From Escherichia phage Ge15, in the sequence record PP359696.1: DNA of 64,000 nt. The stretch is one strand, 5' to 3'. Below, piece after piece: positions 41,628 through 58,007 of the stretch. Made by a program: the position numbers and the translations under genes. The notes beneath the pieces were generated by a model, which did no database searches, was not told the origin of the DNA, and worked only from the letters and a program-made list of their open reading frames with translations. Positions within the stretch are counted from its first letter, which is position 1. Each line of letters starts with the position of its first letter.

Positions 41628-41663
41628 GTTTACAAACTCTTGGGAGTAGAGTATAATACTCCC
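41628..41663 (+). promoter_or_regulatory. T4-type early promoter with inverted repeat GGGAGTA / TACTCCC around GAGTATAAT
   Basis: gtttacaaactcttgggagtagagtataatactccc. Confidence 0.7.
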
Positions 41664-42300: not shown

Positions 42301-42316
42301 AGGGGCTTCGGCCCCT
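42301..42316 (+). terminator. Hairpin AGGGGC-TTCG-GCCCCT
   Basis: UUCG stem-loop after the ORF; weak U-tract. Confidence 0.4.
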
Positions 42317-42336: not shown

Positions 42337-42942
42337 ATGAAAATGCAAAGTGATTTCAATTCAATGTTTGAAGAGTTCCAAAGACAGGTTGATGTTCCAG
42401 ACCAATTACTAAATGCTCTTAAACGCATGGCAGAAGGACGTAATTACTATTGGGGGTCTTCATATGAAACTGATGAAAGTCTTTCTGGATTTTATAAAGG
42501 TAAAAAGTCTTTAATACGTCCTGGAATACTTATTAACAGTATTGAATCAATTCATTCATTGACATGTGATTTTGATGTTGAATTTACTGATTTCATTTCT
42601 CCTGAATGGACGGTTTGTTATTTAAACGACGATTATGATTATCTTGGCGTTTATAGTTTAAGTGACGCATGGTTTAAACGTAATTTACAAAAGTCAAATT
42701 TATTCTATATTGATACTACTGTAAAATTTCAGGGCAAGAAATATTTCTTTACTCTTATAGTTGATTCTGAAACGAAGCATGAAAATAAACGTATTCTTAG
42801 TAAAAAGAATATCTTAACTATTGTCGATGATCTTTTTGATAAATTCGTAGAAAATCCTAATTTTGAAAGCGATTTATTATTAGAAAAATTTGTTAAGGAA
42901 TGTAGAGAATATGTCAAAGCCATCACTATACCTTCCAAGTGA
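42337..42942 (+). CDS. Hypothetical protein; near-C-terminal KFVKECREY motif
   Basis: 201-aa ORF; shares motif with the next three ORFs. Confidence 0.5.
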   Translation: MKMQSDFNSMFEEFQRQVDVPDQLLNALKRMAEGRNYYWGSSYETDESLSGFYKGKKSLIRPGILINSIESIHSLTCDFDVEFTDFISPEWTVCYLNDDYDYLGVYSLSDAWFKRNLQKSNLFYIDTTVKFQGKKYFFTLIVDSETKHENKRILSKKNILTIVDDLFDKFVENPNFESDLLLEKFVKECREYVKAITIPSK

Positions 42943-43303
42943 ACCTGTGAAGTATGAACTAAAGCGTCAGCTAATTCCTACTGATGTATTAATAGGTCCT
43001 GTGACAGCTATATCATTTGTAATTCTATTGATTGTTGGAATGGTTATAGACTTTATGACTGATATTGAATCTGACGTAATATTTTTGTTAGTATTAATTC
43101 TTCCATTAGTAGTTCCATTTTTATTGGTACCTGTAAATTGGGTAGGATATTGGTATCAAGGAAGGCATTATCGTAAACGTGTACGTGAATGGAAAGCTCA
43201 GTGTAAAAAGATTAAAAAGGAACACCAGCTTAAACTAAATATGTATGAATTTAATGAAATTATGAAATTTGTTAAGGAATCACGATGCAAAAGCCAAAAC
43301 TAA
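42911..43303 (+). CDS. Membrane protein (2-3 TM), C-terminal KFVKESRCK motif
   Basis: Start trimmed to MSKPSLYLP; hydrophobic helices. Confidence 0.5.
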   Translation: MSKPSLYLPSEPVKYELKRQLIPTDVLIGPVTAISFVILLIVGMVIDFMTDIESDVIFLLVLILPLVVPFLLVPVNWVGYWYQGRHYRKRVREWKAQCKKIKKEHQLKLNMYEFNEIMKFVKESRCKSQN

Positions 43304-43659
43304 ATAAAGTCAAATATTCTTTTTCTGAGTCATTTTTAATTTTTGCTGTGGCGTTGGCTGCAGCTCTTGCTGGTAGTCTTATTGGATTAATGATTGACTG
43401 TATTATTTTAAACATCCGCAGTAACGTCAGCGGTATAGTAGATATAATAGAAGTTTGGAGTGAACTTCATTATACTATAGCAATTTCATTATTTTCATTC
43501 TTTAGTATCATTTTATATTTTCATTATGATAATTTTAAAATAAATTGGCAAAGAAAAAAGGATTACAAAATACAATTAAAAGAATATAATAACTACATGT
43601 CTTATATTGAAAATGAATCAATGAAAGAATTCGTGAATGATTGTAGGAAAATCAAATGA
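43285..43659 (+). CDS. Membrane protein (2 TM), C-terminal EFVNDCRKIK motif
   Basis: Hydrophobic helices; overlaps neighbours. Confidence 0.5.
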   Translation: MQKPKLNKVKYSFSESFLIFAVALAAALAGSLIGLMIDCIILNIRSNVSGIVDIIEVWSELHYTIAISLFSFFSIILYFHYDNFKINWQRKKDYKIQLKEYNNYMSYIENESMKEFVNDCRKIK

Positions 43660-44144
43660 TTTTAAAAACTCGCTGGTATGATTTAGATGATGGGGACGAT
43701 GGCATTTCAGTCGATAGAGTTGACTGGAGCGGCTGTTCTGAAGATACAAAGAAACGATTAATTAGGGAGTTTAGAATGGGATATCAAGCAGTTAAGCCAT
43801 CTACTGTAACAGATGATAAATTCGTGTGTATTCAAAATGGTCGTGCTAAGTTAACGAACGCTGATTGGTTCACAGATAAGAAGGTTATTCTGTGGTATAT
43901 TATTAGTTTTCCTGTGACATCATTTGTATTTTGCTTCTTTGGAGAAAGTCCAGTAGGCAGAACGGAAGATTGGATTCTTTTAATTATACTTGTTAATATT
44001 TTTACAGCAGCAGTACTATCAGGAATATGGTGCGTGTTCATTGAAATGCCATGGCGGTTACGTAGGCAGCAAAAGATTTTTGATGAAAAGAAATATACTC
44101 AAAATTTAAATAATTTTATCACTGAATGCAGGAAATTAAAATGA
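43656..44144 (+). CDS. Membrane protein (2 TM), C-terminal NFITECRKLK motif
   Basis: Hydrophobic helices; ATGA overlaps on both sides. Confidence 0.5.
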   Translation: MILKTRWYDLDDGDDGISVDRVDWSGCSEDTKKRLIREFRMGYQAVKPSTVTDDKFVCIQNGRAKLTNADWFTDKKVILWYIISFPVTSFVFCFFGESPVGRTEDWILLIILVNIFTAAVLSGIWCVFIEMPWRLRRQQKIFDEKKYTQNLNNFITECRKLK

Positions 44145-44581
44145 AAACATTATCAGCTGGTATTATCTTTATGACAGAAGATAAAGATTTATTTATGGGA
44201 CGAGTTACTGGTTCTCGTAAGCCTGGAATGATGGCACATCGCTGGGATATTCCAAAGGGGCGTGTAGAAAATTCTGATTTAAGCGCATTAGATGCAGCAC
44301 GAAGAGAATGCTCAGAAGAGACTGGTTTTAACAATTATAATCCAGACCTTCTAGAAGACCTAGGTGTATTTAAATATTCTAGTAATAAAGACTTACAGTT
44401 ATTTTATTATACGATTCCAGTAGAGCATGAGATGTTCAGAAATTGCCATTGCGAGTCTTATTTTGAAAATAAAGATGGTGTTATGATTCCAGAGATGGAT
44501 GCTTTTGCCCTTATTCCTCGTACTCAGTGGCAATATGTGATGGGTCCTTCACTTTACCGAATAATGAACAGCCTCTTTTAA
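44126..44581 (+). CDS. nudE: Nudix hydrolase NudE
   Basis: 151 aa; Nudix box region RECSEETGF; directly upstream of e. Confidence 0.8.
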   Translation: MQEIKMKTLSAGIIFMTEDKDLFMGRVTGSRKPGMMAHRWDIPKGRVENSDLSALDAARRECSEETGFNNYNPDLLEDLGVFKYSSNKDLQLFYYTIPVEHEMFRNCHCESYFENKDGVMIPEMDAFALIPRTQWQYVMGPSLYRIMNSLF

Positions 44582-57603: not shown

Positions 57604-57701
57604 TTCATAAGAGGCCTTCTATGACAAAAAGGCAGTTCAGAAATAGATTATATGGACTGCCATCAAAAAGATGACTAGAATTAAACTAGTAAATGGAGGT
57701 A

Positions 57702-58007
57702 ATGATGTTATACTCAAAGGCTCGTGAAATTTACGAAACTAAAATTAAAGAAGCAGTATTTCAGTTCGCAACAACGATGCGATGGACAAATGACTGGGAG
57801 TATTCAAAAAATCATAAGAAGCCCTTGGTGACAAGAAAGGCTCATATGTTAGTGTTAATAGACCGTGAGCAGATTAAAGCCCGAGAAGCCCTCCAGAATC
57901 ATAAAAAGGCTGCCTTTGAATGGTTTATGGATAATACTGCTCCTGAGACTAAGAAAGCGGTCAGCGCATGGTTCAGTGGAAAAAATTGTGAAAGAAGTTT
58001 CTTTTAG
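57702..58007 (+). CDS. Hypothetical protein
   Basis: Start after GGAGG RBS. Confidence 0.45.
   Translation: MMLYSKAREIYETKIKEAVFQFATTMRWTNDWEYSKNHKKPLVTRKAHMLVLIDREQIKAREALQNHKKAAFEWFMDNTAPETKKAVSAWFSGKNCERSFF

Follow-up and report, generated by a model that had tools for sequence, protein, structure and literature searches.

Four consecutive genes of Escherichia phage Ge15, equivalent to e.5, e.4, e.3 and e.2 of T4, encode proteins that end in a shared C-terminal module of ~12-19 residues, [LIM]-x-x-F-[IV]-x-[ED]-C-R-[KE]. The genes lie in a 64,000-nt stretch of sequence record PP359696.1, referred to here as the window. Codon comparisons among orthologues show a tail that behaves as a peptide under purifying selection in four genera of Tevenvirinae, independent of the ribosome-binding site (RBS) of the gene downstream. 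As judged from related genomes, the repeats formed by the tails and junctions are also live recombination substrates: phages that lack e.2 or e.4 have lost the gene precisely, with a hybrid tail still in frame and the coupled junction kept. A common interaction motif would be the most economical functional reading of the tail.

The shared tail

An earlier, sequence-only reading of the window had placed the four open reading frames (ORFs) and quoted their tail peptides correctly, and had drawn attention to the element F-[VI]-x-[ED]-[CS]-R common to them. The proteins end in ...EKFVKECREYVKAITIPSK (e.5), ...MKFVKESRCKSQN (e.4), ...KEFVNDCRKIK (e.3) and ...NNFITECRKLK (e.2). In a six-frame translation of the window, the expression F[VI].[ED][CS]R has exactly four matches, all in these tails, and it has none in a further ~91 kb of the genome of Shigella phage Sf25, which is 99.4% identical across this stretch; the element is unique to the four tails in ~155 kb. 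Composition alone predicts ~0.04 matches in the ~10.9k ORF residues of the window. Closely spaced same-strand junctions number 119 in the ~155 kb, and the motif occurs at these four and at 0 of the other 115, so neither chance nor a constraint from AT-rich RBSs, which the sequence-only reading had named as the way in which its observation could fail, accounts for the motif.

Leave-one-family-out tests, in which a tail profile built from the orthologues of one family was run against 2,173 ORFs, recovered the other families. With the e.3 profile, the e.5 tail came second (E 0.016) and the e.2 tail third (E 0.035); with the e.5 profile, the e.2 tail came second (E 0.003). The e.4 tail was the weaker member. 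A tail-only profile run against an index of 5.8 billion proteins returned only fragments of the same families, which is uninformative, as the tool prefers matches of similar length.

Orthologues were sampled at 18 loci from the four genera, and the position between e.6 and nudE/e is kept in T4, Sf25 and 16 other loci. The cluster was found in Mosigvirus PhAPEC2 (L001), in Gaprivervirus TH40 and its relatives (L007, L019-21) and at Dhakavirus-type loci (L015-18). Although overall identity to the window proteins is only 20-54% in Mosig-, Gapriver- and Dhakavirus, the tails are kept, as QFIMECREY and RFI[TAK]ECREY in e.5, EFVKEIRC and EFIKEVRN in e.4, NFIKECRK and TFIKECKS in e.3, and SFIEECRK in e.2. 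Within each family F, E/D and C (or R) are invariant, and an aliphatic residue conserved at position -3 from the Phe extends the motif to [LIM]-x-x-F-[IV]-x-[ED]-C-R. A fifth carrier was found in Mosigvirus, an RB69ORF133c-like protein (L001 5509-5814; ORF133c below) with two transmembrane (TM) segments and the tail NLENFIKECRGK.

Relationships among the carriers

Whole-length comparisons separate true paralogy from sharing of the tail alone, a distinction that the sequence-only reading overlooked, as it did the role of the repeated tail and junction DNA as a recombination substrate. The e.4 and e.3 proteins are whole-length paralogues (hhalign 93%, E 2.5e-7, 111 columns), in an alignment that covers an M-x-K-P-x-L N-terminus, the two TM segments, a basic stretch and the tail. 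The match between e.3 and e.2 is confined to the last 19 residues (hhalign 89%, E 2.6e-6), and a profile-profile comparison of e.4 with e.2 gave no match. By BLASTP, the protein at the e.5 position in Gaprivervirus has only a 14-aa tail in common with e.5 of Tequatrovirus and Mosigvirus (E 3e-4 to 9e-4), with a weak body match over 24 columns by hhalign (66%). On these comparisons e.2, e.5 and ORF133c are shown to have only the tail in common with the group. A single tandem-duplicated paralogue family comprising all four genes was rejected, as whole-length homology holds for e.4 and e.3 only.

Full-length searches with e.5 and e.2 returned close T-even relatives only, and an exhaustive phmmer search of 1.84 billion proteins with e.5 yielded 5 cluster representatives only, with no distant homologue. 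To judge from these searches, e.5-e.2 are narrow ORFan families. Full-length PHROG matches assign e.5 to phrog_2607 (2e-108), e.4 to phrog_2604 (9e-71), e.3 to phrog_2330 (2e-61) and e.2 to phrog_2203 (9e-78), all with unknown-function or generic 'membrane protein' labels only. Databases hold the four as conserved hypothetical or predicted membrane proteins, with a separate entry for each family; newer Pfam identifiers (PF26876, PF26873, PF26896) have been assigned to the T4 e.2-e.5 families, and searches of Pfam, NCBIfam and PADLOC with the window proteins gave no significant family match. Public records name these genes inconsistently, as 'sulfurtransferase', 'phosphoserine phosphatase', 'site-specific RNA endonuclease', 'DNA primase' or 'terminase small subunit', and none of the conflicting automated names is backed by the profile or structure searches made here.

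Several observations concern the N-terminal domain of e.2 (residues 1-75, window 43656-43880; RWYDLDDGDDGI.VD.VDW..C). It is conserved in Gaprivervirus and Dhakavirus e.2 and missing from Mosigvirus ORF133c, which has the two TM segments and the tail. What appears to be another copy lies elsewhere in some Tequatrovirus genomes; in ESh24 it is at 57607-57729 and is 58% identical over 41 aa. The e.2 protein also gave a weak phmmer match to the gp40 ORF (E 0.086).

Conservation as a peptide

Conservation at the level of the protein, as proposed in the sequence-only reading, is borne out by the orthologues. Across their motifs Arg is encoded by AGA, AGG, CGA, CGT or CGC, Phe by TTT or TTC, and Cys by TGT or TGC. 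Identical motif residues frequently have different codons (3 of 5 in e.2 and 2 or 3 of 5 in e.4, for example), at a rate similar to that of the rest of the gene (0.36-0.61). The related claim that codons differ between copies holds for orthologues and for e.3 against e.2 within the window (TTC GTG AAT GAT TGT vs TTT ATC ACT GAA TGC), but fails for e.5 and e.4, whose tails have an identical 16-nt AAATTTGTTAAGGAAT in common, and in part for e.3 and e.2, which both carry AGGAAA. In T4-type genomes e.3 and e.2 have the full 9-nt TGCAGGAAA in common; the window e.3 has TGTAGGAAA.

The Shine-Dalgarno (SD) sequence shifts relative to the motif. It falls in the K-E codons (AAGGAA), the R-K codons (AGGAAA), the R-G-K codons (GAGGAAA) or 10 or more nt past the motif, and the distance from the end of the motif to the next ATG is 0-22 nt across loci, reaching 22 nt in Gaprivervirus e.5, where the SD follows the motif. 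In the window, AAGGAA or AGGAAA lies 5-10 nt 5′ of each ATG, inside the preceding ORF, and the motif Arg ends 5, 0, 9 and 9 nt before the ATG (taking nudE from 44141). The motif abuts or overlaps the next RBS; it does not, as the sequence-only reading had it, always overlap the start of the next gene. Variation in both codons and SD position among orthologues points to the peptide as the conserved entity, with the RBS using whatever Lys, Glu and Arg codons are available.

The same data contradict an explanation of the tails as an artefact of RBSs or coupling, in which the common residues would be what the next gene's SD and AT-rich initiation region happen to encode. Such an artefact would be in keeping with the SD-like sequence in the K-E or R-K codons of each copy, with junctions that all overlap or abut, and with junction RNAs that are unstructured, as open initiation regions should be. 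It would not explain why F, I/V, E/D and C, which lie outside the SD, are conserved with synonymous changes, why Arg is encoded by both AGR and CGN, why excess similarity is left after SD positions are masked, or why the motif is absent from the remaining coupled or closely spaced junctions. Structured RNA at the four junctions was rejected too, as it folded no better than shuffled controls (z +0.2 to +1.3).

Probable junction duplication and gene loss

The junctions resemble each other in pairs at the DNA level. The e.5/e.4 junction resembles e.4/e.3 (z 3.1, with 5 of 500 shuffles reaching the observed score) and e.3/e.2 resembles e.2/nudE (z 5.7, 0 of 500 shuffles). In the second pair the similarity carries on over the first ~25 nt of the next gene, in a different reading frame (43656-43683 vs 44141-44168, with GCTGGTAT in common). 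Similarity past the next start codon suggests that a cassette of tail, RBS and first codons was copied at each gene addition.

Related phages carry rearrangements with breakpoints in these repeats. An IMG/VR contig (L006) has no e.2, and its e.3 ends in ...DCRKLK, an e.3 body with an e.2 ending that abuts nudE, the breakpoint lying in TGCAGGAAA. At the Dhakavirus-type loci e.4 is absent, and in two of these (L017 and L018) e.5 ends in ...ECREYAKEVQNGTA, an e.4-type ending, directly before e.3. Since most genera carry e.2 and e.4, the simplest reading of these variants is as deletions. In phage vB_EcoM-UFV05 (P0082), e.4 residues 1-32 are fused in frame to e.2 from TM1 on, and the joint at PVT..SFV hints at similarity of e.4 and e.2 in TM1. 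Phage OLB35 (P0013) encodes an apparent e.3/e.4 mosaic of 60 aa. Both chimeras add to the indications of recombination among the paralogous segments.

Gene content of the e.3-to-e.2 interval differs between genera. Mosig-, Gapriver- and Dhakavirus genomes have a tandem row of 3-4 small soluble ORFs, of 65-101 aa, between e.3 and the e.2-type gene (L001 3357-4151; L007 5691-6713). These ORFs end in another common motif, G-W-V-[SA]-S-S-x-x-C, so that neighbouring genes with a shared tail occur twice in this hyperplastic region.

Topology and predicted structure

Hydropathy gives exactly two TM segments in each of e.4, e.3, e.2 and ORF133c and none in e.5; three of the four window proteins are therefore membrane proteins, as the sequence-only reading had it, with two TM helices each in place of its two to three. 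The loop between the segments is short and acidic, and 9-15 Lys and Arg residues follow TM2. From this distribution, the positive-inside rule predicts cytoplasmic N- and C-termini, which would put the tails in the cytoplasm, the compartment of soluble e.5 as well.

In the AlphaFold2 model of e.5 the motif falls within a helix at the C-terminus (residues 180-195; predicted local distance difference test score, pLDDT, about 60-70); in that of e.2 the tail is, with low confidence, an extension of the TM2 helix (H103-161). If the tail is helical, its geometry would put the aliphatic residue (-3), F(0), I/V(+1) and C(+4) on one face within a 100-degree arc, as a hydrophobic stripe flanked by Glu(+3) and Arg(+5).

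Gene map and neighbouring features

The window is a Tequatrovirus segment. The T4 orthologues of the four proteins (NP_049741-NP_049738) are 82-95% identical to them, and the gene order between e.6 and nudE is the same as in T4, with nudE, lysozyme e and denV downstream (Table 1). Overlaps of 32, 19 and 4 nt, and a further 4 nt between e.2 and nudE if nudE starts at 44141, mark e.5-e.2-nudE as a run that is predicted, from its arrangement, to be translationally coupled.

Table 1. Coordinates of the coupled genes, tail modules and associated elements in the window
Feature	Position	Strand	Remarks
GC-rich hairpin, UUCG loop, between e.6 and e.5	42301..42316	+	Upstream limit of coupled run
e.5 coding sequence, 201 aa, soluble, no TM	42337..42942	+	phrog_2607; T4 orthologue NP_049741
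e.5 tail module L-E-K-F-V-K-E-C-R	42880..42906	+	Within predicted helix 180-195
AAGGAA, SD-like, K-E codons of e.5 tail	42895..42900	+	10 nt before e.4 ATG 42911; read from sequence
e.4 coding sequence, 130 aa, 2 TM, predicted N-in/C-in	42911..43303	+	phrog_2604; 32-nt overlap with e.5
e.4 tail module I-M-K-F-V-K-E-S-R	43259..43285	+	Cys position is S, I or V in e.4 family
AAGGAA, SD-like, K-E codons of e.4 tail	43274..43279	+	5 nt before e.3 ATG 43285; read from sequence
e.3 coding sequence, 124 aa, 2 TM, full-length e.4 paralogue	43285..43659	+	phrog_2330; 19-nt overlap with e.4
e.3 tail module M-K-E-F-V-N-D-C-R	43621..43647	+	
AGGAAA, SD-like, R-K codons of e.3 tail	43645..43650	+	5 nt before e.2 ATG 43656; read from sequence
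e.2 coding sequence, 162 aa: ~75-aa N-terminal soluble domain, 2 TM, tail	43656..44144	+	phrog_2203; ATGA overlap with e.3
e.2 tail module L-N-N-F-I-T-E-C-R	44106..44132	+	
AGGAAA, SD-like, R-K codons of e.2 tail	44130..44135	+	5 nt before probable nudE ATG 44141
nudE (Nudix hydrolase), final gene of coupled run	44141..44581	+	PF00293, E 1e-13

A strong sigma-70-like promoter (41629-41657) precedes e.6, and no promoter comparable to it was found upstream of e.5. The perfect hairpin between e.6 and e.5 (GGGGCTTCGGCCCC) is labelled as a terminator in records that include PhAPEC2, but the T-run after it on the + strand is poor, and its role may be in partial termination or in RNA stability. An assignment of e.6 as PspA-like was rejected, as Pfam, NCBIfam and PADLOC gave no significant match.

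The e.2 gene is intact here and frameshifted in the reference T4 genome, by a -1 indel at the equivalent of window position 43944 and a +1 indel at that of 44020, 76 nt apart. In T4 NC_000866 the e.2 region is split into a 102-aa truncated protein and two short ORFs, the last of which ends in NFITECRKLK, and the 102-aa form is present in other isolates too (P0080, 22 member sequences). The T4 annotation gives nudE as 151 aa, from a start equivalent to 44126 within the E-C codons of the e.2 tail. An ATG at 44141 has an AGGAAA SD 5 nt upstream and an ATGA overlap, and the upstream ATG is absent from the contig that lacks e.2; the true start of NudE is probably 44141, giving 146 aa. Window positions 1-34161 align in reverse to Sf25 1-34336, and the remainder appears to match the far end of the Sf25 record. 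The window would therefore span the arbitrary start of that linear record, consistent with a circularly permuted genome.

Proposed function and competing explanations

In T4-infected E. coli, e.2-e.5 are all early transcripts and their proteins have been detected, e.4 and e.5 early, e.2 in the middle period and e.3 late (PMC9697503, supplement files 4 and 6). Genome-wide knock-down of T4 genes with dCas13d (CRISPRi-ART) scored each of e.2-e.5 as 'Not Fit', that is, no fitness defect, with prior essentiality listed as unknown (PMC11879866, supplement file 15). Natural losses of e.2 and e.4, together with the broken e.2 of T4, likewise indicate that individual members are expendable.

These properties could be brought together if a cassette of tail, RBS and start codon were duplicated at each gene addition and its peptide retained as a common cytoplasmic docking helix, carried by a soluble body in e.5 and by membrane anchors in e.4, e.3 and e.2. 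The tails might form a bundle that holds e.5 in an early complex at the inner membrane, or each might bind the same cytoplasmic partner from host or phage; in either case the members would be interchangeable, allowing single members to be lost. The coupling of the run and the silent single knock-downs fit co-produced, partly redundant subunits, and the motif suggests that the genes act together, which would explain that silence. Conservation as a peptide on non-homologous bodies is also what is seen in docking by short linear motifs. The chance that the tail is a common docking helix is put at close to even. A more elaborate proposal is tentative and on balance doubtful: the tails would be the assembly code of an early T-even complex, so far unrecognised, on the cytoplasmic side of the inner membrane. 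Interchangeable two-TM anchors (e.4, e.3, e.2, ORF133c) would be joined to soluble e.5 by an amphipathic helix that contains Cys, perhaps about a metal that they share or a host target common to them, and the 50-60-nt cassette would double as an in-frame splice point for gain or loss of subunits without breaking coupling.

Several findings weigh against a docking helix. The monomer models of e.5 and e.2 are both weak (pLDDT 62.9 and 49.6), and the tails have modest hydrophobic moments that differ from one to another (0.04-0.42). Some 'core' positions tolerate change: e.4 has no Cys (S, I or V in its place), and e.3 of Gapriver- and Dhakavirus has K for R. The tails of e.5 and e.4 partly overlap the reading frame or RBS of the next gene, and 24 nt are identical between Tequatrovirus and Mosigvirus e.5, so that part of the nucleotide conservation in e.5 and e.4 reflects dual coding. 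The 18 loci are a small sample from related genera, and the scarcity of e.5 representatives makes deep comparative tests impossible.

Of the other explanations, the one that survives best, though it is unlikely, treats the tail as a historical residue: the scar of junction or tandem duplication, kept by gene overlap, occasional gene conversion and short divergence, and functionless as a peptide. The DNA likeness of the junction pairs is what such a history would leave, above all in the out-of-frame 5′ ends of e.2 and nudE, and so are the 16-mer identical in e.5 and e.4 and the tendency of the V/I state at +1 to track the genome and not the gene family; all sampled genera also belong to one subfamily. 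Dual coding, however, cannot hold the tails of e.3, e.2 and ORF133c, which overlap the next gene by at most 4 nt, and the differing codons among copies in one genome argue against recent conversion. The bodies have diverged to 20-34% identity or past recognition, and the tail is still recognisable.

Selection might instead act on the DNA as a recombination linker, a repeat maintained so that cassettes can be gained, lost or exchanged in frame without breaking coupling. The deletions of e.2 and e.4 and the e.4::e.2 fusion, with their breakpoints in repeats, would suit such a linker, as would the variable content of the e.3-to-e.2 interval and the precedent of gene shuffling by promoter-early stem-loop (PeSL) elements in RB49/phi1 (PMC2839356; PMC4122927), of which it would be a coding counterpart. 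The exact repeats are nevertheless short (9-16 nt) and differ in codons between copies, whereas selection for homology should do the reverse; selection for future evolvability is weak beside direct selection on a peptide, and any repeat would be just as likely to give such crossovers as a by-product. Maintenance of the repeat for this purpose is accordingly rated improbable.

The sequence-only reading had favoured superinfection-exclusion or lysis-timing factors, with the tail as their common interaction motif. Such accessory roles would be in keeping with early expression, with the inner-membrane site predicted for three of the four proteins and with the dispensability of the genes in the laboratory. 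T4 Sp and rI act in the periplasm, whereas the tails are predicted to be cytoplasmic, and one of the four is a soluble protein of 201 aa. Single-sequence phmmer searches found no relative in the rest of the genome's ORFs, among them imm, sp, rIII and rI; with no Pfam, NCBIfam or PADLOC family matched either and no fitness defect upon knock-down in T4 (PMC11879866), this assignment is not supported and is rated very unlikely. Least probable of all is the RBS artefact contradicted above.

About half of T4 genes have no assigned function, e.2-e.5 being typical cases, and a peptide on four or five otherwise unrelated proteins offers an experimental handle on the T4 ORFans e.2-e.5. The junction cassette indicates how a phage can gain or lose genes inside a coupled run while neighbours are undisturbed. 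Practical stakes are modest, as the genes are dispensable in the laboratory and limited to a few closely related genera.

Comparison with known systems

In a limited literature search, made by gene name and returning mostly noise, neither the shared tail nor the fifth carrier nor the precise tail-mediated deletions were found described, and e.2-e.5 were mentioned only in omics and CRISPRi supplements (PMC9697503, PMC11879866). As far as that search extends, what is new here is modular evolution by boundary repeats in coding form, combined with a common peptide motif; the genes themselves were already catalogued as hypothetical.

PeSL-mediated gene shuffling is established in the hyperplastic regions of the T4-type phages RB49 and phi1 (Arbiol et al. 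2010, PMC2839356; Comeau et al. 2014, PMC4122927). The junction repeats resemble PeSL cassettes in being short boundary repeats in a variable T4-type region, where recombination between copies deletes or exchanges whole genes, and the gene-sized indels between related phages (L006, L015-L018, P0082) are of the kind expected of such cassettes. They differ in that PeSLs are intergenic and consist of a sigma-70-like early promoter and a terminator stem-loop, whereas the repeat here is coding, comprises tail, RBS and start, and is conserved as a peptide; neither promoter nor terminator was found at the four junctions. The junction cassette would thus complement intergenic PeSL shuffling.

Like T4 Imm, Sp, rI and rIII, e.5-e.2 are small, early, non-essential and, as predicted for three of them, envelope-associated. 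They differ from these proteins in having no detectable homology to them and in that their presumed functional part, the tail, is predicted to be cytoplasmic.

The acidic C-terminal tip of SSB and the clamp-binding motifs are short C-terminal docking motifs common to unrelated proteins. The tail resembles them, as an analogy of mechanism only, in being a short terminal peptide conserved on otherwise unrelated bodies, as if to bring each of them to one common partner. Its sequence is unrelated to theirs, and its carriers are clustered, paralogue-like phage ORFans in place of dispersed cellular proteins.

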